From an uncultured Pseudomonadota bacterium (GTDB lineage Bacteria; Pseudomonadota; Alphaproteobacteria; Rs-D84), in assembly GCA_902774285.1 (NCBI GenBank), contig CACYHO010000001.1:400958-464957 (forward strand): DNA of 64,000 nucleotides, in the 5' to 3' direction. The notes beneath the pieces are model-generated. The model was not told where the DNA came from. It searched no databases and saw only the letters and a list, made by a program, of their open reading frames with translations. Shown here piece by piece: positions 22,009-58,297 of this stretch; within the stretch, counting starts at the first letter, position 1, and every line of letters starts with the position of its first letter. A program made the translations under genes and the position numbers.

Positions 22009-22037
22009 TTGATTTTTTAGTGATTTTATGATATAAT
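22009..22037 (+). promoter_or_regulatory. Promoter of MuF-GH108 gene
   Basis: TTGATT-N17-TATAAT with TGn. Confidence 0.75.
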
Positions 22038-22050
22038 AGTTCACATATTC

Positions 22051-22076
22051 AGACGGCATTTTGCCGTCTTTTTTTT
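22051..22076 (+). terminator. Terminator-like hairpin inside the 5' leader
   Basis: AGACGGC-ATTTT-GCCGTCT followed by a T run, before ATG 22097. Confidence 0.7.
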
Positions 22077-22096
22077 ATTTAACAAAAGGATATTTT

Positions 22097-23263
22097 ATGC
22101 AAACACCAAAGTTTTTACGCAATCTGTTGCAATCAAATGATTACTGGAATAAAAATTCCACAGAATTTGCAAAAGCAAATGAATATCTGGAAACTTTGTT
22201 TCCAGGACAATTACAGCAAGATGCAACAGGTCAATATATTGAACCAAAATACGATATGACATATGAACAGTTTGTAAACGCGCAAAAGAAATTAGATGAA
22301 GCTATTCAAGATGCAATACAGGATGCCGAAGCGGAAGCAGAAGAAAAAGGGATGTCGGTCGATTATTCACAATTTGTGGAAGTCGAAGAAGAAATAGATG
22401 TTCGTATTTTAATGCCTTGGGGCGATATAGAAAATGAAAAATTGATTGTTTATACATTGAACATCCCAGATGACGATGAAGAACCAGAAAAAACAAAAAA
22501 GATTTGGATCTGGCACAGCGAAGATGACGAACGTATTTGCGATGATTGTGCATCACATGATGGTGAAGTATTCGAAGATAAAGGCGATATTCCAGATATC
22601 CCTGTGCATCCTAATTGTCGTTGCTGGGTTGAAGAAGTAAAGTTAGATAATAACGGCAAACCAATTTCTAGCAAAGTCTATAAAGGTCAAAAGCCAGAGA
22701 ATAAAACAGATAAAAATGAGACACAAGATATGAAAATGAGCGATGATACTAAAAAATTCGACCAAGCATATAATAATTTGAAAGAACGCGAAGGCGGATA
22801 TACAACCGGCAAAAATCAGAAAAAAGATGAACCAACTAACATGGGTATAAAACAAAGTACTTTGGATAAATATTCTGCGAAATACCCAGATAAAAATTTT
22901 CCGCAGGATGTAAAAGATTTAGAAGAATACCAAGCAAAAGAGATATATAAGAGCGAATACTGGGATAATACAAGAATACCGCAAATAGAAAATGATAGAA
23001 TACGTAACGCGGTATTTGATATGAACGTTATGGGTGGCGCAGGAAAAGTTGTACAAAAAGCGATAAACTCTTTTTCTGATACAAATTTAAAGGTTGATGG
23101 TGTTATAGGCAAAGAAACAATCAAAGCTATAAATGCAATTCCAGATACAAAGATTGAAGAATTTATGTCAACAATAAAGTCTGAGAGAATCAATTATTTG
23201 CAAAATACACAAAATTGGGAAACTGCGAAAAACGGATGGATAAAAAGGACTAATGCGTATTGA
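22097..23263 (+). CDS. Phage MuF (head morphogenesis) domain fused to glycoside hydrolase 108 lysozyme and PG-binding domain
   Basis: WIWH...CDDC..HDG...PVHPNCRC; EREGGY...TNMGI (GH108 EGGY); LKVDGVIGKET; GWIKR. Confidence 0.8.
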   Translation: MQTPKFLRNLLQSNDYWNKNSTEFAKANEYLETLFPGQLQQDATGQYIEPKYDMTYEQFVNAQKKLDEAIQDAIQDAEAEAEEKGMSVDYSQFVEVEEEIDVRILMPWGDIENEKLIVYTLNIPDDDEEPEKTKKIWIWHSEDDERICDDCASHDGEVFEDKGDIPDIPVHPNCRCWVEEVKLDNNGKPISSKVYKGQKPENKTDKNETQDMKMSDDTKKFDQAYNNLKEREGGYTTGKNQKKDEPTNMGIKQSTLDKYSAKYPDKNFPQDVKDLEEYQAKEIYKSEYWDNTRIPQIENDRIRNAVFDMNVMGGAGKVVQKAINSFSDTNLKVDGVIGKETIKAINAIPDTKIEEFMSTIKSERINYLQNTQNWETAKNGWIKRTNAY

Positions 23264-23692
23264 TTATTGCTTTGTCCAAAGACCTTCCACTGTCGCATTC
23301 ATACCACAAAAAGCATTATCTGAATCTGCGTTAATATAACGCAGATTCAATTCATTTTTAGATAATATTTGAAACCTTATACCGACAGGAATATTATATT
23401 CCGTATCTGTTTGATTATCGTATACATATTTTGTGGTTTTATATTCTGCAAAATTATTGTGTATTGTTAATTTTCCACTTACATCACATATATGTAAATC
23501 GTACCACGATTGAATAGTGAAACTGCAAGTTGAATCTGTACAATTAGAAATTATCATTTCGCCAGCCAAAGATGCGTCTGTATCATTTAATTGCCATTTC
23601 CCAGAAAAATACTCAGAATCAGATTGTTCACCAAGAGCATAAACTGGTAAAAGCAAAATACAAAAAAACAAACAGAAAACCAACTTTCTCAT
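23264..23692 (-). CDS. Secreted Cys-containing protein, candidate lysozyme inhibitor/immunity
   Basis: Signal peptide; stop codon abuts that of the MuF-GH108 gene. Confidence 0.55.
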   Translation of the reverse strand: MRKLVFCLFFCILLLPVYALGEQSDSEYFSGKWQLNDTDASLAGEMIISNCTDSTCSFTIQSWYDLHICDVSGKLTIHNNFAEYKTTKYVYDNQTDTEYNIPVGIRFQILSKNELNLRYINADSDNAFCGMNATVEGLWTKQ

Positions 23693-23770
23693 GGTATGTA
23701 TTTTATATCATGTCTTTATTTGATGTCAACACAATTGATTTCTGTTATTATATGATTTACAATAAAATAT

Positions 23771-24160
23771 ATGAAAAAAATTATCGTGTTTTTTGCGTTC
23801 TTAGTCGGCTGTAGTTCTGCTAACAGTCAATCATGTGATTTATGTGGCAACTGGTCTTTTGACCGATTTGAATATGCCGGACACATAACCACAGACTGTG
23901 AAGGTATAGCACAACAAATTTTTAAGGATACGAACATCACAATCTCAGATAACTATTTTGCAAAAACATATATAACAGATAACAGTGCAAATACGTTCAA
24001 CAATGTGAATATTATTTACGGGGAATTTGATTCAGGTAAAAACGCCCAGGTAATTTTTATTACATCTGGGGATAAGCTGATTGAAAAATTATATAAATCA
24101 ACAAAAAATACAGTCTATTTATCTTTGGATGGTTGTGATTTTTATTTTAAAAGGGATTAA
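23771..24160 (+). CDS. Lipoprotein, hypothetical
   Basis: MKKIIVFFAFLVG-C lipobox. Confidence 0.65.
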   Translation: MKKIIVFFAFLVGCSSANSQSCDLCGNWSFDRFEYAGHITTDCEGIAQQIFKDTNITISDNYFAKTYITDNSANTFNNVNIIYGEFDSGKNAQVIFITSGDKLIEKLYKSTKNTVYLSLDGCDFYFKRD

Positions 24161-24230
24161 CTATTTAAATGCCTGGATGATTGTTTTGAATCCTTGTTTC
24201 TAAAGTTGTCATATTGAGGTTGCCAGAAGA

Positions 24231-24779
24231 TTATCTTTTTGGTTTATAAACCGTGTGTCCACCGGCTACATAATCTTTTAAAACTTTTTCACCGGCTTCT
24301 GTTTCTATTTGACCGTAAACTGTTATACCACGTTTTTTAAATTCTTTAAACCAGTCAGGTTTAAAACCTTCATCAAAGCCTGTTATTTTGGTAACACGTT
24401 CAGAAGGAACACCGTAATAAACCGCTTTGATACCAGACCACATAATTCCACCCAAACACATCATACAAGGTTCAGATGTCACATATATGCTTAAATTGTA
24501 TGGTGACAAATCATAAGTCCCTAGTTTCTTTTCTGCCAGTTTTATCGCGTTCATTTCGGCGTGATTATGGCTGCAAGATTTGTTTACAACACTGTTTGCT
24601 GTTTTTGCAATCAAATTGCCTTTGGAATCATAAATAGCGGCCAGAAATGGACCATGGCCTTTGGCGATATATTTTTTTAATTCTTGTTGTAAATCCAATA
24701 TGATTTTACTGGCCTTGATAAGTTTTGCATTATCGATTTTTTCGTTAGCAATTACAGCTGTTTTTGTTTTTTCTGACAT
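24231..24779 (-). CDS. Nucleoside/guanine deaminase (CDA family)
   Basis: GPFLAAI, HAEMNAI, EPCMMC. Confidence 0.88.
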   Translation of the reverse strand: MSEKTKTAVIANEKIDNAKLIKASKIILDLQQELKKYIAKGHGPFLAAIYDSKGNLIAKTANSVVNKSCSHNHAEMNAIKLAEKKLGTYDLSPYNLSIYVTSEPCMMCLGGIMWSGIKAVYYGVPSERVTKITGFDEGFKPDWFKEFKKRGITVYGQIETEAGEKVLKDYVAGGHTVYKPKR

Positions 24780-24889
24780 ATATTTTCCTTTTGTAAGATT
24801 ATGGCATAAATTGTGTTAAATTGCAAAGAATCAAAAACATTAGTTTATAGCATACCAGAAATAAAAACCACCCAAACGGGTGGTTTTTA

Positions 24890-25390
24890 TTATTTTAATA
24901 AATATCTGACATCGCAAATTTTTCGATACTTTTTGTTGGATATAGATTCTATTTTATTGTTTTTAATTTCTGATACTTCCACATTTGCTTTTGTTGGTTT
25001 CATATAATCTTTGCCGGGTTTTCTGTATGCGCTTGTTATTGCGAACGGTTGCATTTGAAATTTATAAGCACGCAAGACACAGTCTGCGCCTTCTTGTGTT
25101 GTTAAACGTGTAAGCTTTGTACCGTTGTTTAGGTATATATCATAGAAAGTATAAGCGTGTGCTGTGCCAGTCACGAACCGACCACGTTTTATAGTATCTT
25201 TTTTGCCATCGTTGTTTATGTCTATGAAAAAAGTGTCCATTCTTTTGATTCCGTAATTATCAGGTAAATCAAATTCTTCGGTTTTGTCTGGTACTGGTAG
25301 ACCATCAGAAAAATCTGCAGTATATTCAAGTTGCCTTGAACATGCCGCACATAACAATAAAACAAAACATCTATTCAACACTTTCAGCAT
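24890..25390 (-). CDS. Lipoprotein, candidate immunity protein of upstream hydrolase
   Basis: Start MLKVLNRCFVLLLCAA-C at 25390 overlapping the upstream stop; paralog of 30280-30876. Confidence 0.65.
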   Translation of the reverse strand: MLKVLNRCFVLLLCAACSRQLEYTADFSDGLPVPDKTEEFDLPDNYGIKRMDTFFIDINNDGKKDTIKRGRFVTGTAHAYTFYDIYLNNGTKLTRLTTQEGADCVLRAYKFQMQPFAITSAYRKPGKDYMKPTKANVEVSEIKNNKIESISNKKYRKICDVRYLLK

Positions 25391-25976
25391 GACATCTGCA
25401 TCCGTATTCTTCCCCCGGATGTGGAGAATCATACCATGTTCTGATTTCGCCGTCCAGTATTTCGTGTTCTGGTCTAACTTTATCATCACCAACGGTTACC
25501 CAAACATATTTTTCATGTTTAGAGACTAAACGTTTTTTACCTGTTATGTTTCCTTCGTGTCTGGCCATTGCTTTTGCTAACATAAGCAGATTATCTTTAG
25601 AAAGATTATTCATTGGTGTTGAACGTGGAAAACCTGTTTGTTTTTCTATAGATTTTAAATAATTGTCGACATTGTTTTCATTTGATGGTGCATACCTGTT
25701 TATTGCGCCTTCAATAGTTAAGTTTTGATATGCATTTGTTGATAACAAACCTGCCATAGCATTAAAACCAGTAGTTGTGTCAGGAAATATGGCGAATCTG
25801 CCGTCTGAACCAATAGCGCCATTATTGCGTGCAAATTTTCCATATTCTAAATTACCAGGGTTGTTATTGCGCCATGCTCTGCTACCACCACTGGCTTCAT
25901 AGATATTACCGTCGTTTCCAACGAACATTCTGTTGGTCCCGATTCCTGGAAATGCTGATATATAAGTTGGCTCCAT
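25371..25976 (-). CDS. Lysozyme-like (RNNNPGN) domain fused to C-terminal MuF domain
   Basis: GGSRAWRNNNPGNL...GRFAIF...RYAPSNENN; YVWVTVGDDKVRPEH..LDG...HPGEEYGCRC. Confidence 0.78.
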   Translation of the reverse strand: MEPTYISAFPGIGTNRMFVGNDGNIYEASGGSRAWRNNNPGNLEYGKFARNNGAIGSDGRFAIFPDTTTGFNAMAGLLSTNAYQNLTIEGAINRYAPSNENNVDNYLKSIEKQTGFPRSTPMNNLSKDNLLMLAKAMARHEGNITGKKRLVSKHEKYVWVTVGDDKVRPEHEILDGEIRTWYDSPHPGEEYGCRCHAESVE

Positions 25977-26002
25977 TTATAACTCCTTTAGATTTTTTAT
26001 AT

Positions 26003-26070
26003 AAAAAAAAGACGGCAAAACGCCGTCTGAACATGGTAAATATTATACCATAAAAGCATAAAAAAATCAA
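26003..26070 (-). promoter_or_regulatory. Promoter plus leader terminator, homologous to 22009-22076
   Basis: TTGATT-N17-TATAAT (TGn), then AGACGGC-GTTTT-GCCGTCT and T8. Confidence 0.75.
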
Positions 26071-30886: not shown

Positions 30887-31852
30887 TTACATTTTTTGTT
30901 CCGTTCCAACACCCCATCCTTCGACTGTTTGAATAGCACGTGCAATTTTAAACAAATCGTTATCACTTAAATTACTGATTTTGGCATCAGCAGCAAGGCC
31001 AGTCATATTTGATACGCGTCTTGAATAATTTTCAGGATTATTTCCATCACTAAAAGGCGCCCATTTATGAATCGCGTCTTTGACAGATAAATGATTATAA
31101 CTGTTGCTGCGTAATAATTTGGTTATCGCACGTAAACCAGTTTCTTCGTCTGGGAAAACAGCCCATTTGTCTGTTTCGCCAATGGCACCGTTTTCATAAG
31201 CGAATTTAGATTTTCTTATGTTTCCAGGGTTATTGTTGCGCCATGCAGCAGTTCCGCCGATTCTTTTGATCTTGGTACCGTCGTTTGTTATATACACTGT
31301 CGTCTTGTTTTCGTATTCAACCCTGGCAATATCAGAAACATGAAAACCAGAAGAAGTCGATTGTTGATTCAGACTTTCTATTAACATATTGTCAGTGTTA
31401 TCTGTGAAAACTGGTCCTGAATCAATCATATTAAAATTTTCATAAAGTAAATTTTCATCAGATTTACCAAGTTTCTTATTACGTATTTCTAATAATTCAT
31501 CAACGGCTGCACGTGATATCTGTTTGACTTCACATTGTTGTGCAAATAAATCTTTGCCGTATATGATAGTAACGATAGGTTTTACTGCGCCAAGTATGCA
31601 CAATATTAACAGCAATGTTTTTGCGTTATTAAAAACAGTGTTTATTTTTATTCCATTTTTAATGTATAAAACGCCCCAACCAAAAATTATAACAGCGGTC
31701 AGAATTAAAATAACCATCCATGCATATTCAAGCAAAGTATCGAATGCCGGAAAAATACATGAAGGATCTTGGAAATAAATAAAATCAGATTCTACACGGA
31801 CTTTTTCAAGTCCAGAATTGATAAGTAAATTAAGAATGGTTGTTTCGTCCAT
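30887..31852 (-). CDS. Two-TM protein with C-terminal lysozyme-like RNNNPGN domain
   Basis: GGTAAWRNNNPGNI...KWAVF...KWAPFSDGNNPENY; homologous to the N-terminal domain of 25371-25976. Confidence 0.75.
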   Translation of the reverse strand: MDETTILNLLINSGLEKVRVESDFIYFQDPSCIFPAFDTLLEYAWMVILILTAVIIFGWGVLYIKNGIKINTVFNNAKTLLLILCILGAVKPIVTIIYGKDLFAQQCEVKQISRAAVDELLEIRNKKLGKSDENLLYENFNMIDSGPVFTDNTDNMLIESLNQQSTSSGFHVSDIARVEYENKTTVYITNDGTKIKRIGGTAAWRNNNPGNIRKSKFAYENGAIGETDKWAVFPDEETGLRAITKLLRSNSYNHLSVKDAIHKWAPFSDGNNPENYSRRVSNMTGLAADAKISNLSDNDLFKIARAIQTVEGWGVGTEQKM

Positions 31853-33357: not shown

Positions 33358-33948
33358 TTAATTATTCCGTAAATATTTATATAAAGTACTTTTGTTAACA
33401 TGCATAATGCGTGCGATTTCATTTTTGCTGATACCTTTGTCAACAAGGCGGTTTATGCGTTTTTTATTTTTGCTTAATTTTAAAGTTTTTGATTTTGCAC
33501 CGATTGGACGCCCCAGTTTTTTCCCAGATGCTTTTAATCGTGCTAAACTTTCTCGAACACGTTCTTGTAATAAAGATTTTGATAATTCTGCAGACAAACC
33601 AAAGGCAAAAGCCAATACTTTTGATTGTATATCAGACCCCAGTCGAAAGTTTTCTTTCAATGTCCAAACTTGACAGTCTTTTTCAAGGCACGTTTGCAAA
33701 ATTCCCATGACTTCCAATAAACTGCGTCCCAATCTGGAAATTTCAGTTGTTATTAAAATATCACCAGATTTCAGTTTGTTTAATAAAAGACCAAGTTTTC
33801 GGTCTTGTAATTTTTTACTGCTGGAAATTTTTTCTTCGACCCAAGCATCAATTTGTAAATTATTTTGTTTTGCGAAATTTTCAATGACAAAGTGTTGATT
33901 TTCTTCGTGTTGATGTGCAGTAGAAACACGACAATATCCATAAATCAT
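33358..33948 (-). CDS. Serine recombinase, Hin/Pin-like DNA invertase
   Basis: YGYCRVST (catalytic Ser), EISRLGRS, GKKLGRP, C-terminal HTH. Confidence 0.92.
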   Translation of the reverse strand: MIYGYCRVSTAHQHEENQHFVIENFAKQNNLQIDAWVEEKISSSKKLQDRKLGLLLNKLKSGDILITTEISRLGRSLLEVMGILQTCLEKDCQVWTLKENFRLGSDIQSKVLAFAFGLSAELSKSLLQERVRESLARLKASGKKLGRPIGAKSKTLKLSKNKKRINRLVDKGISKNEIARIMHVNKSTLYKYLRNN

Positions 33949-34045
33949 AAAATCTCCTTTTTCTTTTTTTTACAATAAAAAAACAGGCACAATGCCTGTC
34001 GATTATGTCAATGATATAATTTGTTTTTTTCATATTTCAAGTGGT

Positions 34046-46284: not shown

Positions 46285-46455
46285 AATCGAAATGTAATAC
46301 ACAAAATGCGATTTGTCAAGTATTTTGTCAAAAAATTTTTTTAGTATATTTTTTTAGCCCTTTTTTATAGGAAAACAAACTGACTGAATTTATTCTGTGT
46401 ATCAATTATTATTAGATTGTTTGATTGGAAAAACACGAAGGATAGGAGAAATATC

Positions 46456-46698
46456 ATGACACACGAAGATGTATGGCGTGCAATAGAAAAATTTGCCACG
46501 GAACATCATATGTCTTGTTCTGGGCTGGCAAAATGCAGCGGTTTGGATCCAACAACCTTTAATAAAAGCAAACGTTGGTCAAAAGAAGGGCAACCAAGAT
46601 GGCCTTCGACCAACAGTATTTCCAAGATATTGGCATCAACAGGCGCTTCTTTGGAAGATTTTACTAAATTTATCCCGTCCAATGAACATACAATGTAA
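46456..46698 (+). CDS. Alphaproteobacterial XRE-type HTH regulator without S24 domain
   Basis: MTHEDVWRAIEK...SGLAK.SGLDPTTFNKSKR...RWPSTNSISKIL; RBS AGGAG. Confidence 0.85.
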   Translation: MTHEDVWRAIEKFATEHHMSCSGLAKCSGLDPTTFNKSKRWSKEGQPRWPSTNSISKILASTGASLEDFTKFIPSNEHTM

Positions 46699-46743: not shown

Positions 46744-47163
46744 ATGTTGGAAAATATAAAGATTTATGCGTCGGATAAATACTGGAATCATATCTTAGCC
46801 GATTTGGGTGCAAATCTTGTCGAAACACCAGATGTTGCAGATGTGATATTTGATGATATTTCAATAAATTCGCCCATTTCGGTTGAGTGTTTGCAAAATT
46901 TGATTCTGGCCCAATTCAATAACAATGACATTATTGCTGATATTTTTGGGCATGATGAGGTGTTGCCTGCGTTACAACGTAAAATATTGGTTGCGTTATA
47001 TAAAAAACCAAATATGCAAATGAATGAATTAAAATTGGCCGTTGGTTTATCGCCAGATATAACAACACACAGTGTTGAAAATGCAATATATCAATTACGC
47101 AAAACTTTTGGACACGATTTTATTCTTAATGAAAATGGGGGGTATAAAATTGGACGCATATAA
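46744..47163 (+). CDS. OmpR-type winged-helix domain protein
   Basis: THSVENAIYQLRKTFG..ILNENGGYKI. Confidence 0.65.
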   Translation: MLENIKIYASDKYWNHILADLGANLVETPDVADVIFDDISINSPISVECLQNLILAQFNNNDIIADIFGHDEVLPALQRKILVALYKKPNMQMNELKLAVGLSPDITTHSVENAIYQLRKTFGHDFILNENGGYKIGRI

Positions 47164-47815
47164 ATTGCTATCTTTTGATAAAATACCTTCGACCCAAGAT
47201 TACGCACATGATTTAATCGCAGACGGAAAAGCATCTAATAAAACAGTCATAGTTGCTCAGGCGCAAAGTGCAGGCCGTGGCCGATACAAAAGAACATGGG
47301 TTTCTCATCATGGAAATCTTTACGCATCATTTATTTATAAAGTATATGAACGTGATCCAAAGTTATCTTATGCAGTTGCTGTGGCGATCGCAGAAACTTT
47401 GATTTCTTTTGGTTTGAATCCGCAAATTAAATGGCCAAACGATGTTTTAATAGATGGTAAAAAGATAAGTGGTGTATTAATTGAATATGCGCGCAACTTC
47501 GTAATTGTCGGAATTGGTATAAATATCAAAACTTGTCCGACCGTGAAAGAATATAAAACAACCAAAGTAAATGATTATGCAGATGTGTCTGTTGAAGATG
47601 TATTGGGTGTGTTGATGAAAAAATTAGACAAGTGGCGCAATGCTGATTTTGCGATTGTTCGTGAAAGATGGACCGAAATGGCAATATGCATAAATCAAAT
47701 GATTCGTTATCAAGGCAAAGATGCAGAATTAATAGGTCTTAACGAAGATGGTGCGCTGGTGTTGCGTTTCGATTCGCGCTATGTTTTAACATATGGTGAT
47801 GAAATCAGCATTTAA
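47150..47815 (+). CDS. birA: Biotin--[acetyl-CoA-carboxylase] ligase
   Basis: TTG start; QSAGRGRYKRTW, KWPNDVLIDGKKISGVL. Confidence 0.93.
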   Translation: MDAYKLLSFDKIPSTQDYAHDLIADGKASNKTVIVAQAQSAGRGRYKRTWVSHHGNLYASFIYKVYERDPKLSYAVAVAIAETLISFGLNPQIKWPNDVLIDGKKISGVLIEYARNFVIVGIGINIKTCPTVKEYKTTKVNDYADVSVEDVLGVLMKKLDKWRNADFAIVRERWTEMAICINQMIRYQGKDAELIGLNEDGALVLRFDSRYVLTYGDEISI

Positions 47816-47817
47816 TA

Positions 47818-48576
47818 TTATTCCGCATTGCCACACGTTGTATCATCACACACATAATAATCAGTATTGTTATATTTGATTTTTAAATGTTGGACAGAAT
47901 CTTTGTTCATCACCGTTTCGATTGTTGTCATATTTGCATAAAATATATCATTCCCAACACGTATGTTTAACGAAGGTGTCGTTTGTTTGGTTTGTTTTAA
48001 ATAAATATTATCATTTCCAACGTGTAATATATGCGGATAACAAACCGCAGAACCGGTTGGGGCAAATGTGTTATTGGCGCATTGTTCAATACCCTGTGGT
48101 GTTATTTCATTAAAAGTCAAATTTCCACCTGGACAATAATGGTCGTTCAAACATTTCCTGCATTCATCAATATTTGCCGGTAAATAATATCCCGGATTAC
48201 AATTATGAATATTTGGGGTAAAAGTTGCCGTAATATTTGAAACGTTATTATATGCTCTCAAAAAATTTTCTTTACAACCGTTTCTTATATTTTCTGTGAC
48301 TTGTATCTTGAATTTATTTCCTTGGTCATATTCTTCATTAAAGGTAAAGTTTCCCCCATTACAATCATAAACATCGGGACACACCACACAACCATCATTA
48401 TTTGCCGGAACATAATATCCGGAATTACATTGGTATTGGTTCGGGGTAAATGTAGCAAATAAATACGTATCAGTATTCAAACCAGACGAACAACCATTTG
48501 GAATGTTTGACATAATCAAATCGTCCGCAAATGCGGGTATTGGTATTATTAAAAATAATAACCATTTGTGTTTCAT
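47818..48576 (-). CDS. Secreted Cys-rich repeat protein
   Basis: Signal peptide; CNSGYY..C..CP..C.GG repeated twice; C-terminal LHVG..TTPSL..RVG domain. Confidence 0.7.
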   Translation of the reverse strand: MKHKWLLFLIIPIPAFADDLIMSNIPNGCSSGLNTDTYLFATFTPNQYQCNSGYYVPANNDGCVVCPDVYDCNGGNFTFNEEYDQGNKFKIQVTENIRNGCKENFLRAYNNVSNITATFTPNIHNCNPGYYLPANIDECRKCLNDHYCPGGNLTFNEITPQGIEQCANNTFAPTGSAVCYPHILHVGNDNIYLKQTKQTTPSLNIRVGNDIFYANMTTIETVMNKDSVQHLKIKYNNTDYYVCDDTTCGNAE

Positions 48577-49355
48577 TATTCAGTAATTACAGGTCCGGCA
48601 ATAAATTGACCAGTACCGGCGTTGTAATAAAATTTAGCTTCAACTCTATCAAATAGACAAGGAACTCCATTCGTATCAAGAACAGGGATAAAATCACGAA
48701 CAAGAGTATTATTTTCATATATTTTTGTGTAATATATTCGTGCTTTTGCTTTTTGTGTGTAATTACCGTTTCCATAATTATCTGCAAACAATGCGAAAGA
48801 ATTGAGGGTATAATATGGTATATTGTTTTTAGAATAAGATACCCCATTAATTGTTTTTGTGAACACACCGTCTGTTTGGGACATTTCTAATACGTACGTA
48901 TTGCTTGTATTGACTGCGGTACAAAAAGAATTTTGAGTTGTATTTTGTGCATGCCAAATACATGTTTCTGTGTTTTTTAATGTAGCGATAAAAGTCCATG
49001 GTCTACCAGCACTTGCTTCTGTTTCGGCACCAGACAAACAAGAGTTTTCATAGGATGTCGGTTGAAATTTGATAATGACTTTTGAATTTGGGTGAGAAAA
49101 AACCACTCCTGTGTCTATAGCTTGTGTTCCTGTGGATTCTAAATATTCAACTGGTATATAATTTGATATTTTCCATCCTGTAAAGGTATATCCATATCTT
49201 GTCGGGGGTGTGGACGGTAAAATTAAATCACTGTTAATTTCACATGTTGAATCTTGGTATGTTGTTCCGTCATAATTTAACCAGTGCAGGTTTATTGTAT
49301 CGGCAAATGCAAAACCGATAAACATTAATGATAATAATACAACAAACCGTTTCAT
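48576..49355 (-). CDS. Secreted protein with InlB B-repeat-like segment and lectin/LamG-like domain
   Basis: Start MKRFVVLL at 49355; TPPTRYGYTFTGW; EYLESTGTQAIDTG...LVRDFIPV...FYYNAGTGQF. Confidence 0.7.
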   Translation of the reverse strand: MKRFVVLLSLMFIGFAFADTINLHWLNYDGTTYQDSTCEINSDLILPSTPPTRYGYTFTGWKISNYIPVEYLESTGTQAIDTGVVFSHPNSKVIIKFQPTSYENSCLSGAETEASAGRPWTFIATLKNTETCIWHAQNTTQNSFCTAVNTSNTYVLEMSQTDGVFTKTINGVSYSKNNIPYYTLNSFALFADNYGNGNYTQKAKARIYYTKIYENNTLVRDFIPVLDTNGVPCLFDRVEAKFYYNAGTGQFIAGPVITE

Positions 49356-49380
49356 TTGATTTTTCCCCCAACACAAACCA

Positions 49381-49555
49381 AAAAGAACCGCCAGAGAAAA
49401 ATCAAAGGCGGTTGGAGGCTAGAAGCAATTCAGTACGAAATTGCGCGCTTATTCAATATATTCGCGACCCTCCAACCACGGGTTGGAGGCATTTTACGTC
49501 TGCTTTCGACGCGTACTCAATGGGCTTCTAGTCCCATCAGCAAAACTCTTGCTGA
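49381..49555 (-). promoter_or_regulatory. Structured leader with attenuator (1:2, 2:3, 3:4) architecture
   Basis: CCTCCAACC/GGTTGGAGG hairpin, second CCTCCAACC forming the 5' arm of terminator AACCGCC/GGCGGTT plus U tract. Confidence 0.6.
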
Positions 49556-49622
49556 CAATGTGATTTTGGCACATTTATATAGAAAAATAAAGTAATAAAT
49601 TTAAAAGTGCCGTAATATGCCC

Positions 49623-49700
49623 TTGACTTTTATGTCAATTTGTGATATTATATAACACATCAAGAATAGAAATTTTGCCCGCAATATTGCGGCTTTTTTT
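49623..49700 (+). promoter_or_regulatory. Promoter of phage-like cluster followed by a leader terminator
   Basis: TTGACT-N17-TATTAT (TGn); CCGCA-ATAT-TGCGG plus T7 at 49677-49700. Confidence 0.65.
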
Positions 49701-49763
49701 ATTCAATATTTTTGCCTGCACTTTTTGTGCGGGCTTTTTTTAACAAAAAAACAGGTCTTGAAC

Positions 49764-51426: not shown

Positions 51427-51669
51427 GAATTTGCGCAAATATTTTGCGTGATTTTTTATATGTCATCCCCAAAGCGTTTGTTTTGGGGATTTTTTTGATA
51501 AATTTTTCAGTTAGATATTATATGTCTAACTGAATTTTTTATTGGATAATCCATTTTTGGACCCTTTTTTGTGTTTTGTATTTATGGCGCGATATTTTTC
51601 GCACAACCATTAATCAAAATTTTTCAAATGCGCGTAAGCGTTTTTTAATTTAAACAAAAAGGATTTCTT

Positions 51670-52491
51670 ATGTCTATGTCTGTAGATCAAGTGTTTATAA
51701 AACAATTTGAAGCAGATGTTCATTTGGCTTATCAGCAAATGGGCACAAAATTACGCTCTACAATTCGTAGTAAATCTGGGGTTGTGGGGACTTCTACTAC
51801 TTTCCAAAAAGTTGGCAAAGGTATTGCCAGCACAAAATCACGTCATGGGATTGTTCCTGTGATGAATTTGAATCACACACCTGTTGAATGCACATTGCAA
51901 GATTATTATGCAGGCGATTGGGTTGATGCATTGGATGAATTGAAAACTAATGTTGATGAACGTCGTGTAGTCGCTTCTGCTGGTGCTTATGCTTTGGGTC
52001 GCAAAACAGATGAATTAATCATCAATGCTATGAATTCTGCAACACAATATGTTGGTGATTATTCAACAGGTTTAACAAAAGCTATGATCATGGCTGCTTT
52101 GGAAAAATTGAACGCAAACGATGTTCCAGATGATGGTCGCAGATTTGCTGTTGTTGGTGTTCACCAATGGAACGAATTGTTGAAATTAGACGAATTCGTT
52201 TCTTCTGATTATGTTGGCGGTTCTACACCTTTGGTAGATGGTTGCGAATCACGTAAATGGTTGGGTGTTAATTGGATTTTATGCAATGCATTGCCATTAA
52301 GCAGCGACGATCGTGATTGCTTTATGTATCACGCATCCAGTATCGGTCATGCTTGTGGTCAAGAAGTTAAAACAGATATCACATGGCATGGTGAACGTGC
52401 CGCTCACTTTATCAGCAACAGCATGTCTCAAGGCGCTGTTTTGATTGATAACGATGGTATCGTTCGTTTGAAATGTGATGATGACGCATAA
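51670..52491 (+). CDS. Major capsid protein (BPP-1-like podoviral family)
   Basis: SVDQVFIKQFEADVHLAYQQMGTKLR, DWVDALDELK, ALGRKTDELII, WLGVNW. Confidence 0.88.
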   Translation: MSMSVDQVFIKQFEADVHLAYQQMGTKLRSTIRSKSGVVGTSTTFQKVGKGIASTKSRHGIVPVMNLNHTPVECTLQDYYAGDWVDALDELKTNVDERRVVASAGAYALGRKTDELIINAMNSATQYVGDYSTGLTKAMIMAALEKLNANDVPDDGRRFAVVGVHQWNELLKLDEFVSSDYVGGSTPLVDGCESRKWLGVNWILCNALPLSSDDRDCFMYHASSIGHACGQEVKTDITWHGERAAHFISNSMSQGAVLIDNDGIVRLKCDDDA

Positions 52492-52747: not shown

Positions 52748-52810
52748 TAATTTCTTCGTTGAATAGTGTTGGGGGATATTTATCCCCCATTTTTTATTTA
52801 ATAAATAGGT

Positions 52811-53335
52811 GTGAATATGTTTACAAAAATAGATTTATGTTCAATGGCATTATTAAAATTGGGCGAAAAACCAATTCAATCGTGGCGTGAAGACAGTGCC
52901 AGTGCACAATTGGCCAGAACGTTGTTTGATCCAACGGTTGATACTTTGTTATCAATGTTTCCATGGCGTTTTGCCACAAAAACTTTAGTTTTAAATAAAA
53001 CACAAGATGGCGATTTTGTAATTCCAAGTGAAGTATTAAGAATTTTAAAATGTAATGGTCAAATTATAGGCAACAGAATCAAAGCCGCAGAAAATACAAT
53101 AACAATATTGGCTGTTGTTAAAACAGAACCAGAAATGTTCCCTGGGTATTTTGCAACATTGGTCGCCACGAAATTGGCAATGGAATTCTGTATTCCGCTT
53201 ATTGGCGATGCAAATGTATTTAAAATGATGACCGCATTATACGAATCAGAATATCAATCTGCAAAATTCATAGACAGTACAACATCAAAACAATCAAATA
53301 TTGGAAGTTTTTCTTTGATAGATTCCAGATTTTAA
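52811..53335 (+). CDS. Tail adaptor / tubular protein A-like
   Basis: IDLCSMALLKLGE..I...LL..PWRFA...LA.E. Confidence 0.75.
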   Translation: MNMFTKIDLCSMALLKLGEKPIQSWREDSASAQLARTLFDPTVDTLLSMFPWRFATKTLVLNKTQDGDFVIPSEVLRILKCNGQIIGNRIKAAENTITILAVVKTEPEMFPGYFATLVATKLAMEFCIPLIGDANVFKMMTALYESEYQSAKFIDSTTSKQSNIGSFSLIDSRF

Positions 53336-55081: not shown

Positions 55082-55429
55082 ATGGGACAATTAGTATCAG
55101 ATGTAACAAAAGTTTTAGATTATAAAGAATCTAAAAAATCAGCAGAAAATCAAAGACAACAAATACTTGCGCAAATGGCGGCAGACGAAGCTACAAAAAC
55201 AAATTTGATAAAAAAAGCATTGTCTGCGCAACGCGCAAAATATGGTGCGTCGGGTAATACTGGTTCTGGTTTGTCAGAAAGTGCAGTGTTAAAACGTTTG
55301 CGCGAAGAAACTGCAAAACCGTACGACGAAAAATATCAAGAAAATATAGAAAAAATTAAAAAGTTAAAAGTAAAAAAACCAAACATACTTAAAACATGGT
55401 TGTCTAACATAGATAAAATAGCAGGATAG
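55082..55429 (+). CDS. Internal virion protein-like
   Basis: QRAKYGASG..GSG..AVL motif typical of small podoviral core proteins; synteny. Confidence 0.55.
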   Translation: MGQLVSDVTKVLDYKESKKSAENQRQQILAQMAADEATKTNLIKKALSAQRAKYGASGNTGSGLSESAVLKRLREETAKPYDEKYQENIEKIKKLKVKKPNILKTWLSNIDKIAG

Positions 55430-56553: not shown

Positions 56554-57195
56554 TTATGAAAGAGATGACATAAATGTGCGAAGCTTTGCAAGCATTTCAT
56601 TACCCGCATCACCAAACATAGGAAGATATGTTTCGAACTCTGGCATGTCTGCTTGAATTTGTGCGCGGTTACGTTCGGATAATGTTTCTGATAATAATTC
56701 TTTGGCACTGTCCCAAATGCGATAAGCTTTATCTGTTTGTGCAACAACTTTCCATTTAGAAATCATGTCTTTGTCATGTGCGATTGCAGATTTAATATCT
56801 TCAACCCAATCATTACCAAATTTCTGAATGAATGTTAATTGTCTGATAGTATTCAAACCATCAATTGTTGGCTGGAATTCTTCCAGTGCATGTTTCAATT
56901 GATTGATTTCATCTTCGGTCAACGAAATATTTGCTTTTCGGTCAGACATCAAACCACCATATGGCAACAAATCTTTGTCTATAGTATCCATAGGTGTTTT
57001 ACCACTGCGCAGATTATTTATATGTGTAACGAGTTTTTTGCCTGTTGGCATAGATTCTAATTCGGCTATAACCTGGTCATCATTAGATTCTGTGATAAAA
57101 ACTTTGTTAACAGCAGCCCATCCGCCATCAATAACGTGAGCTTGACGATAAAGGTTCAATAAACGCTGTGCGATTGTATGTGCTTGTTGTTGCAT
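56554..57195 (-). CDS. Hypothetical protein
   Basis: 213-aa ORF, RBS GGGGAG; co-oriented with the HTH gene and dnaB. Confidence 0.7.
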   Translation of the reverse strand: MQQQAHTIAQRLLNLYRQAHVIDGGWAAVNKVFITESNDDQVIAELESMPTGKKLVTHINNLRSGKTPMDTIDKDLLPYGGLMSDRKANISLTEDEINQLKHALEEFQPTIDGLNTIRQLTFIQKFGNDWVEDIKSAIAHDKDMISKWKVVAQTDKAYRIWDSAKELLSETLSERNRAQIQADMPEFETYLPMFGDAGNEMLAKLRTFMSSLS

Positions 57196-57223: not shown

Positions 57224-58231
57224 TTATTGCATAACTATCATGACAACTTTATGGAATGTTTTTCCTGTTATCTTTTCTTCAGGATTTGATACATGACCAA
57301 AAGTTTTGCCATGGCTATCTTGACGTACAACCACAATTTGTGCATCAACGATATCATCAGATGATAATTTTGTAAAATCTTCGTTTATGCATACAGCCAA
57401 ATCACCAACCTTTGGTTTTGTTGTAGCGTCTACGAAAACATAAGAAGATTCTGGTATGAAACCACCCAGTCTTTTTGAATTAGGAATAACAGCATATATT
57501 CCATTGCGGCCTTCTAATGTAGTAGGTGCAACAATCATTGTTTCGTCAGATTTCTTCAATTTGATGTTTTTGCCGGCAGGCTTACCGAAAACAGGAACCA
57601 ATTTTTTGCGTGCATTATCATACAATTGTGCACCGTAAAGACCACCATGAATATCCAAACCTGATATTGGGTTGACAGGTTCCAAAACAGATTTAACGCG
57701 TTCTTTGACTTTGTTAATTTGTTTTGTTAATTCACCAGCCTTATACAGTTTTGCGATTTCATCAAACAATTCAGATGCACTGTATCCAAAAGCATGAGCC
57801 AAAGTATCGATTTCGTTTTCATAAACTTCGCGTTGACCAACTTCGATTTTATGATAAACAGACAATGTCATTTTTGCATCTTTGGCGGCCTGAGCAATAG
57901 TTTTTTCTTTGCGTTGACGGATTTTGCGAAGTCCGGAACCGAATATTTTCAATCCGCTGTCTTCGTTGTCATTTAAACGGCGCTTGATTTCATTTTGCCA
58001 ATTTTGCGCGACAGAATCAGATTCGTGAATAAATATATCTGACAATTTGCAGCCCAATATTGTGCATACATTTAACAACTGTTTTTGATTAAGACGACGA
58101 ACGCCTTTTTCAATCTTTGATACAGCAGAAAGTGATAAATTAGCACGACGTGCCAATTCTGTCATTTTCATACCTTTGCTTGCACGAATATTGCGAATAT
58201 TATTTGGAAAAATGATTTCTTCTTGTGCCAT
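57224..58231 (-). CDS. Repressor-like protein with two XRE HTH domains and an S24-like C-terminal domain
   Basis: NNIRNIR...LARRANLSLSAVSKIEKG; LRKIR...AKMTLSVYHKIEVG; VPVFG...YVFVD..KPKVGD; RBS AAGGAG; TTGCCA-N17-TAATAT promoter. Confidence 0.75.
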   Translation of the reverse strand: MAQEEIIFPNNIRNIRASKGMKMTELARRANLSLSAVSKIEKGVRRLNQKQLLNVCTILGCKLSDIFIHESDSVAQNWQNEIKRRLNDNEDSGLKIFGSGLRKIRQRKEKTIAQAAKDAKMTLSVYHKIEVGQREVYENEIDTLAHAFGYSASELFDEIAKLYKAGELTKQINKVKERVKSVLEPVNPISGLDIHGGLYGAQLYDNARKKLVPVFGKPAGKNIKLKKSDETMIVAPTTLEGRNGIYAVIPNSKRLGGFIPESSYVFVDATTKPKVGDLAVCINEDFTKLSSDDIVDAQIVVVRQDSHGKTFGHVSNPEEKITGKTFHKVVMIVMQ

Positions 58232-58297
58232 GACCGGACTCCTTGATATCATGTTGACAAAATATTAGTCAATTTTTAAGGGCTTGGCAAGTAAAAA

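Follow-up and report, generated by a model that had tools for sequence, protein, structure and literature searches.

Two MuF genes with a common leader

The 64-kb window analysed here (64,000 nucleotides, positions 400,958 to 464,957 of contig CACYHO010000001.1 in assembly GCA_902774285.1, from an uncultured alphaproteobacterium of the Rs-D84 lineage; positions given without a contig label refer to this whole stretch) contains two genes with a phage MuF motif, MuF1 and MuF2, and a cluster of T7-like head and tail genes. A leader cassette of ~70-78 nt precedes each MuF gene, at 22009-22086 on the plus strand and at 26070-25993 on the minus strand, and these are its only two copies in the 855-kb, four-contig genome. 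The original prediction had described a twin promoter-then-terminator leader at both genes, and the sequence, consensus scans and an alignment at 87% identity bear this description out. A terminator-gated regulon of phage-particle genes, to which these leaders belong, is well supported by the analysis that follows.

Each MuF leader contains, in this order, the promoter, a GC hairpin of 7-8 bp, a T8 run, a ribosome-binding site (RBS) and the ATG. The MuF1 promoter (22009..22037, plus strand) consists of a TTGATT -35 element at 22009-22014, a 17-nt spacer and TGaTATAAT, with the -10 element at 22032-22037. Its leader terminator (22051..22076, plus strand) reads AGACGGC-ATTTT-GCCGTCT at 22051-22069 with a T-run up to 22076; the hairpin begins 14 nt after the -10 element, ~7 nt past the likely start site, and the T-run is followed by the RBS AAAGGA and the ATG at 22097. 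The MuF2 promoter (26042..26070, minus strand) is TTGATT-N17-TGgTATAAT (-35 at 26070-26065, -10 at 26047-26042), and its leader terminator (26003..26028, minus strand) is AGACGGC-GTTTT-GCCGTCT, with the hairpin at 26028-26010, the T-run up to 26003 and the ATG at 25976. Both sites are promoter-like (10/12 plus TG) and terminator-like (8 pairs, 5 GC) in consensus scans. The likeness between the two leaders, which extends over 70 nt (blastn E 3e-13, no third match genome-wide), begins at the -35 element and stops near the RBS, and their 22-nt hairpin pattern has 2 matches in the genome vs 0.00 expected. The predicted folds have free energies of -12.4 kcal/mol for MuF1 (z -4.5) and -11.9 for MuF2 (z -2.0). 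A covariance model of promoter, 6-bp hairpin and T-run, termed R1, scores 85.1 bits on MuF1 (22009-22080) and 81.9 bits on MuF2; the only other match in the window is the leader of the head-tail cluster (33 bits).

The proteins encoded behind these leaders, whose N-termini the original prediction had called unrelated, are alike only in a 45-residue MuF stretch with 27% identity. Pfam Phage_Mu_F (PF04233) matches both proteins in its C-terminal part only (E 4e-7 and 1.6e-9), the aligned part, positions 57-111 of the 112 in the profile, being the domain's C-terminal quarter. MuF1 (22097..23263, plus strand, 388 aa) has a conserved N-terminal region, the MuF C-terminal motif at aa 127-178, a GH108 lysozyme domain and PG_binding_3; its orthologues keep aa 1-225 and carry a swapped C-terminus (GH108, lysozyme or Tlde1). 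MuF2 (25371..25976, minus strand, 201 aa) combines an RNNNPGN-type N-terminal domain, 42% identical to aa 184-319 of the protein encoded at 30887-31852, with a C-terminal MuF motif. The end of MuF2 is overlapped by a lipoprotein gene (24890..25390, minus strand; the start is approximate and taken from the signal peptide), possibly encoding an immunity protein, and the resulting operon ends at a hairpin at 24860-24891.

The leader layout marks phage-particle genes across the genome

We listed every non-coding promoter with TTGNNN and an extended -10 element in the genome and obtained 45 sites. A hairpin with a T-run lies within 70 nt downstream of 6 of these promoters, and the remaining 39 have plain 15-60-nt leaders. 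Five of the 6 gated promoters head phage-derived genes: MuF1, MuF2, the particle cluster at 49623 (two hairpins), a 311-aa fibre gene at C1:172448 (two leader hairpins, weak Phage_T7_tail N-domain match) and a 193-aa fibre gene at C1:490594 (Mtd_N, E 5e-13). This association has a Fisher p of 5e-6 on the unchecked assumption that none of the 39 other promoters (0/39) serves a phage-derived gene. The leaders of the cluster and the two fibre genes are looser versions of the MuF cassette layout, which with these five phage-particle loci is wider than the original prediction had claimed. Same-strand tandem arrays are likewise restricted: among 468 predicted terminators in the genome they occur only in the leader of the first fibre gene, in the cluster leader and ahead of the capsid gene. 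Terminators that end at most 35 nt from a start codon are also concentrated at particle genes.

The sixth gated promoter (C1:3895-3960, plus strand) has no open reading frame (ORF) behind it; its strong extended -10 element is followed 10 nt on by TGCGCGCG-AAAAAA-TGCGCGTA and T6, and it may represent either a small-RNA unit or a convergent terminator.

Three further sites came to our attention. At 33984-33998 (minus strand), the hairpin CAGGCATTGTGCCTG with T7 ends 29 nt before a Hin-like invertase gene (33358-33948), whose start codon lies too close behind the terminator for a promoter to fit between. At C1:333068-333620 (minus strand), three CGATTCGA-type repeats and an TTGTATAAT promoter are followed by a leader hairpin with T6 that ends 34 nt before a 117-aa ORF (C1:333068-333418) for which Pfam and PHROG gave no matches; an ORF of 112-128 aa, also lacking a family match, comes next, and the two are possibly a regulator pair. 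At C1:388276-388400 (plus strand), the perfect inverted repeat TTGACAA-N8-TTGTCAA is part of the promoter of an ORF that encodes 93 aa, four of them cysteines, and matches no family.

Terminator-like hairpins lead and punctuate the head-tail cluster

The head-tail cluster encodes a Hydrolase_2 protein, a T7 scaffold protein, an HC2-like basic protein, Phage_capsid_2, tail proteins, a split terminase and a T7-type portal. Its promoter (49623..49651, plus strand; TTGACT-N17-TGaTATTAT) lies behind a divergent gene and keeps its position in 27/27 species. The hairpin with T7 that the original prediction had placed behind this promoter is present, and a second one, beyond its list, follows, so that the leader holds two tandem terminators (49679..49741, plus strand: 49679-49692 plus T7 and 49714-49734 plus T7) that end 23 nt ahead of the first cluster gene (Hydrolase_2, ATG 49764). 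Further hairpins inside the cluster, predicted near 51465 and 52771, were also recovered. The former is the middle member of three tandem terminator-like hairpins (51431..51540, plus strand: 51431-51451, 51465-51490 and 51506-51534) in the interval from the HC2-like gene to the capsid gene, and no clear promoter lies between this array and the capsid ATG at 51670. The latter (52770..52795, plus strand, hairpin 52770-52789) comes after the capsid gene and an ORF of 76 aa and lies 22 nt ahead of a tail gene that starts at 52811. The cluster leader folds at -29.6 kcal/mol (z -3.9) and the pre-capsid array at -41.9 (z -8.1).

These positions are kept in related species. At least one terminator-like hairpin occurs in the cluster leader of 27/27 species and two occur in 22, with stems that show no relation from one species to another. 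Behind the HC2-like gene, one to three hairpins occur in each of the 24 loci that extend this far (24/24), and the post-capsid terminator is present in 9/14 species sampled.

Upstream of the cluster promoter, two genes at 47818-49376 (minus strand) form a ~1.8-kb insertion relative to other species, next to a pair of BirA-like genes. One of the two encodes a Listeria-Bacteroides-repeat surface protein whose N-terminus is nearly identical to that of a paralogue at C1:339851, and both paralogues have GC-rich 5' leaders (49377-49600 in the window) that are possibly structured.

Conservation of the cassette in relatives

R1 matches 59/61 genomes of the genus at 1-9 sites per genome. Beyond the genus it matches two sister genera and one MuF-type toxin gene in another family of the order. 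We examined the genes downstream of ~70 R1 matches and found MuF1 and MuF2 orthologues, fusions of the MuF fragment to GH108, phage lysozyme or Tlde1/YkuD with PG_binding_1, free phage lysozymes, fibres, C5 and EcoRI-like DNA methylases, a DuOB protein and a phosphatase-like protein. Among 72 distinct leaders, 48 have two units of hairpin and T-run, 23 have one and a single leader has none; the order of promoter, one or two such units and RBS is present in 71/72 distinct leaders of the genus as well as at the five loci here. In seven MuF1 orthologues from other species of the genus, the promoter, hairpin 1 with its T-run, the RBS and the ATG are retained, usually along with a second hairpin and T-run ahead of the RBS. 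A comparison of the regions upstream of the -35 element between leaders found nothing in common.

In another species, the leader of a free phage-lysozyme gene (L024, genome G061) is nearly identical to the MuF1 leader at 22009-22080, with few mismatches by eye. This near-identity suggests that recombination or gene conversion carries the cassette from one regulon gene to another.

The hairpins are under selection as RNA

To assess the stems we used 73 model-aligned matches; since this alignment was fitted to R1 and its sequences are related, the following numbers lean towards structure. In this alignment 97.3% of cells pair, both-sided changes occur in 6/6 pairs, and the covariation score is 0.495 vs 0.172 in shuffles (0/500), with slid controls collapsing. 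The variety of stems by eye (GACGGC, GACGAC, GGCAAC, CACCGC, GGCCGC and others) shows covariation independently of the model fit. Non-Watson-Crick cells are G·U in 14 cases vs A·C in 2, a bias expected if selection acts on the sense-strand RNA rather than on a palindrome in the DNA. The hairpins have no A-run in front of them and would therefore act in the sense direction only. The leaders have a median hairpin free energy of -9.3 kcal/mol vs -8.3 for all predicted terminators of the genome, a median T-run of 6 (range 4-9) and a median distance from the -10 element to hairpin 1 of 14 nt. They combine the features of intrinsic terminators, a GC-rich stem selected as RNA and an adjoining U-tract, and on this anatomy they probably function as terminators.

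A proposed switch based on read-through

The cassette joins a near-consensus sigma-70 promoter with an extended -10 element to one or two canonical intrinsic terminators a few nt into the transcript, ending 15-35 nt ahead of the RBS. This layout marks the dispersed regulon of a domesticated T7-like particle, comprising here the head-tail cluster, both fibre genes and the two cell-wall hydrolases with a MuF tag, and in relatives also lysozymes, Tlde1-type toxins and phage-type DNA methylases. In the mechanism that we propose, most transcripts would end by default as ~30-80-nt RNAs, and because they would stop early, the particle genes would be silent despite their strong promoters. Expression would then require read-through, for which the likeliest agent would be a trans factor that makes RNA polymerase terminator-resistant in the manner of Q, AlpA and GafZ; the same factor would carry polymerase past the tandem terminators ahead of the capsid gene.

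The leaders offer little space for control in cis. Only ~6-10 nt of RNA precede hairpin 1, which leaves no room for a leader peptide, a riboswitch or an alternative structure of the RAT or ANTAR type, and thus read-through control is either exerted in trans or absent. No leader ORF is present, an Rfam search of the window returned tRNAs only, and the terminator hairpins are the only conserved structure in the folds, so that the leaders do not have the make-up of a cis attenuator, riboswitch or RAT/ANTAR-type leader. Capsid is the most abundant particle protein, and the three terminators ahead of its gene, which have no clear promoter behind them, speak for read-through that can be switched. 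By analogy, the strong promoters, the restricted tandem terminators, the pre-capsid triple array and the lytic or toxic products would all fit the logic of Q, AlpA and GafZ. Regulated antitermination is, on these grounds, our best reading of the leaders, and we lean towards it by a small degree.

According to the original prediction, these loci are silent by default and are co-activated by one antiterminator. The regulon part of this claim stands, with five loci in this genome, matches in 59/61 genomes, covarying stems and tandem terminators found only here. The antiterminator part does not stand in the same way: Q (PF06530), AlpA (PF05930) and a second NusG were all not found, and we infer antitermination, its regulation and the use of one single factor for all loci from the leaders.

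Several points weigh against regulated antitermination. In the 77%-complete assembly, neither Phage_AlpA (PF05930) nor a second NusG-family gene was found, the single PF02357 match being at C1:340527-340850. A search for Q (PF06530) yielded a sole, chance-level match (E 0.025) with stop codons; PF03589, Q21-type families and GafY/GafZ were not searched for. In a weighted column profile of 68 leaders, a pause, nut-like or loading box was not evident, and the stretch from the -10 element to the hairpin carries 0.1-0.6 bits/column. The spacer features that are conserved, a T-run after TTGA and TTT before TG, are present in ordinary promoters too. The leaders are also related by descent, and probably by gene conversion as well, so leader counts are not independent events. 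Termination so near the start site, finally, is an assumption of our reading.

Alternative roles for the hairpins

The strongest competitor, which we nevertheless consider unlikely, is that the leaders are fixed attenuators with no dedicated factor. A strong promoter and leaky terminators would then set a low output that is constant or globally modulated by nucleoside triphosphate pools, NusA/NusG or growth rate; toxic and lytic genes would be shielded from upstream read-through, and on/off control would lie elsewhere, for instance in a promoter repressor. The failure to find an antiterminator homologue or a specific loading box agrees with this explanation, as does the presence inside the cluster of a CI-like repressor gene with a double helix-turn-helix (HTH) and an invariant operator. 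In T7, stoichiometry is tuned by a terminator behind the capsid gene, a position that the 52770 site shares. Two or three strong tandem terminators would, however, be an odd way to set a level for which a weaker promoter would suffice, and tandem arrays are exclusive to these loci. The pre-capsid triple array with no clear later promoter argues for switchable read-through instead, and the half-sites of the CI-like operator are not conserved in the regulon promoters.

We regard it as improbable that the hairpins are mRNA-stabilising 5' stem-loops, small-RNA bodies or a DNA palindrome for a dimeric repressor and not gates. Hairpin 1 does lie only ~7 nt into the transcript, and the MuF-type stems keep GACGNC/GNCGTC and an ATTTT loop across many species. 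Yet every hairpin is backed by a T-run of 4-9, which a stabiliser or an operator would not need, and a second, unrelated hairpin with a T-run usually comes next. Stem sequences are unrelated among the fibre, cluster and methylase leaders, and the 14:2 excess of G·U over A·C is a mark of selection on sense-strand RNA.

A third explanation, to which we give very little credence, treats the hairpins merely as 3' terminators of the upstream genes, with the promoter squeezed in by compaction and the repeat arising from a duplicated gene boundary. The genes upstream of MuF1 and MuF2, a CutA-like gene (stop 21993) and a gene for a 413-aa Cys-rich protein (stop 26082), are indeed both co-directional and stop 12-16 nt before the -35 element without a terminator of their own. 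For this reason the MuF hairpins probably double as terminators of these genes in this genome, a point absent from the original prediction. As their sole role, upstream termination is rejected on orthologue contexts and genus-wide conservation. The order of elements is kept behind a divergent gene at the cluster and, in genome G006, behind a tRNA that has its own terminator upstream of the MuF1-orthologue promoter; the layout precedes unrelated gene families in 59/61 genomes, which leaves upstream termination at most a secondary role here.

That the hairpin arms are DNA uptake sequences can be dismissed almost entirely: GCCGTCTGAA, the Neisseria uptake 10-mer, occurs 6 times in the genome vs 0.6 expected from composition, with three copies within 22-26 kb (22048-22057, 25800-25809 and 26022-26031; two form hairpin arms and the third is within the MuF2 coding sequence), and inverted pairs of the uptake sequence form terminators in Neisseria, but 6 copies per 855 kb fall far short of an uptake density of about one copy per kb, and the orthologous hairpins read GACGAC, GGCAAC, GGCGAC and so on, so that the idea fails on both frequency and conservation. 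The copies probably reflect coincidence or the shared descent of the cassette.

Comparison with known antitermination systems

In layout the leaders resemble the AlpA regulon of P. aeruginosa (PalpB-tB; PA0807), in which more than one locus has a sigma-70 promoter and one or two terminators before the first ORF (PMC7969949, PMC9371919). AlpA targets carry one intrinsic terminator before alpB and two before PA0807, between promoter and ORF, and the element bound by AlpA sits between -35 and -10 (PMC7969949). The AlpA targets are lysis and peptidoglycan-remodelling genes that are on in a subset of cells, and a LexA/CI-like repressor, AlpR, forms an upstream layer there, while a CI-like gene is present here. 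Unlike in that system, Phage_AlpA was not found here, and there is no GGGACG-N5-GGTA-like or other specific box between -35 and -10; the loci per genome are many more, the terminators lie ~7 nt into the transcript, and the genes are those of a T7-like particle.

The leaders also recall the lambdoid PR'-qut-tR' arrangement that is read by Q of phages lambda, 82 and 21, with its strong constitutive promoter, its short terminated leader RNA and its structural and lysis genes, for which polymerase has to read processively through several terminators. The lambdoid system serves one late operon, whereas the regulon here is dispersed; Q was not found, and the conserved -10-like pause element of the initial transcribed region is not seen. 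The leader here is far shorter than the lambda 6S RNA of ~190 nt.

The Caulobacter gene transfer agent (CcGTA) is similar in being a host-owned phage-like particle with terminators in the main cluster that have to be bypassed and with scattered, co-regulated accessory loci (PMC11150451). GafZ bypasses terminators inside the CcGTA cluster, and ~18 accessory loci are co-activated by GafY and IHF (PMC11150451). As in a system of the GafYZ type, terminators are found inside the cluster here and accessory loci carry the same leader layout. The CcGTA promoters are degenerate at -35 and activator-dependent, in contrast to the near-consensus promoters here; the terminator there follows the first gene and is made of 150-bp repeats, and the particle is of the RcGTA type and siphovirus-like, not T7-like.

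NusG paralogues (RfaH with ops, Bacteroides UpxY, LoaP) provide a further parallel, since they bring about operon-specific processive antitermination through the 5' leaders of horizontally acquired genes. In this assembly only one NusG gene was found, and the leaders have no ops-like conserved box.

MuF polymorphic toxins of temperate phages, which Jamet et al. reportedly described in 2017, combine a MuF head-morphogenesis module with exchangeable toxin domains. MuF1 resembles them in its conserved N-terminal region (aa 1-225) and variable C-termini. It differs, together with MuF2, in having only the C-terminal quarter of the MuF domain; the genes are scattered and do not lie beside the portal gene, and the motif of MuF2 is C-terminal.

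Functionally, the leaders may represent a switch of the Q, AlpA or GafZ kind, for which membership in the Q and AlpA families fails at the level of the protein. New with respect to the known systems are the dispersed regulon with many loci, the consensus promoters, the terminators a few nt into the transcript, the T7-like particle and the lineage. The literature on Candidatus Enterousia, the putative genus of this host, does not mention phage or gene transfer agent elements.

Candidate regulators

A more specific proposal, which we put forward tentatively and rate as possible rather than probable, is a novel antitermination system with a factor unlike Q, AlpA, GafZ and the NusG paralogues that acts at near-consensus sigma-70 promoters. 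At as many as nine or more dispersed loci in a genome, such a system would override one to three canonical terminators and so switch on the whole T7-like particle regulon. As leads only, the candidate factors are a 213-aa protein (56554-57195), an 81-aa Cro-type protein (46457-46698) and a 115-aa unannotated cluster ORF (55082-55429).

The 213-aa protein (P0002; 56554-57195, minus strand) is all-helical, with an AlphaFold pLDDT of 81, and a fold search with it gave no PDB match below E 1. Its 1250 homologues are all hypothetical; 39/41 genomes of the order encode it, and tandem paralogues occur in another family. Its gene is co-operonic with the CI-like gene (57224-58252, minus strand; 342 aa, two HTH_3 domains, C-terminal region LexA/CI-like by eye), and throughout the genus a block of dnaB, the HTH gene and P0002 lies between the terminase halves. 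The promoter of the CI-like gene (58254-58290) contains the palindrome AAATTGACTAWWATTTTGTCAAG, which overlaps the -10 element and is invariant in 14/14 species.

The half-site of this operator recurs twice at 46311-46456 (plus strand), as tandem boxes TTTGTCAAG-N5-TTTGTCAAA upstream of the 81-aa Cro/CI-type HTH gene at 46457-46698. This arrangement is conserved in ~20 species, and the protein is 79-95% identical across the genus. In many species a common leader element, 'cctaggaaatggtacttgttg...ggaataaaatca', lies between the tandem boxes and the gene.

Direct action of the CI-like repressor on the regulon promoters was considered and set aside. The half-sites TTGACT and TGTCAA occur in the cluster promoter of this genome and of four close relatives only, their spacing is not that of the true operator, and 22 other species lack the second half-site. 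As the CI-like sites are not conserved in regulon promoters, any link to the leaders is indirect.

A 139-aa winged-helix protein was also considered as a Q-like regulator. By eye its C-terminal winged helix is BirA-like and the protein looks like the DNA-binding domain of a split or two-gene BirA, which makes this role unlikely; it has a weak HTH_24 match (E 0.022), and its gene overlaps the adjacent 247-aa BPL_LplA_LipB gene by 92 nt (46744-47815, plus strand, for both). In almost every species of the genus, this BirA-like pair is found ~660 nt upstream of the particle-cluster promoter, a position that is probably synteny only.

Implications

If our reading is correct, the cassette would be a cis-marker that lists all genes of a domesticated T7-like particle in an uncultured gut lineage with tiny genomes. 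The genes so marked would be fibres, cargo toxins, lysins and methylases, including ones that homology alone would not link to the particle. Promoter-proximal terminator gating would be widened from one operon or two loci to a genome-wide regulon, and a gated regulon in a lineage with no recognisable antiterminator would point to a new factor family. Since the leaders are short, strong and modular, they lend themselves to direct tests, in vitro or in reporter strains, without culturing the organism; in gut metatranscriptomes, their signature would be ~30-80-nt RNAs ending at U-tracts.

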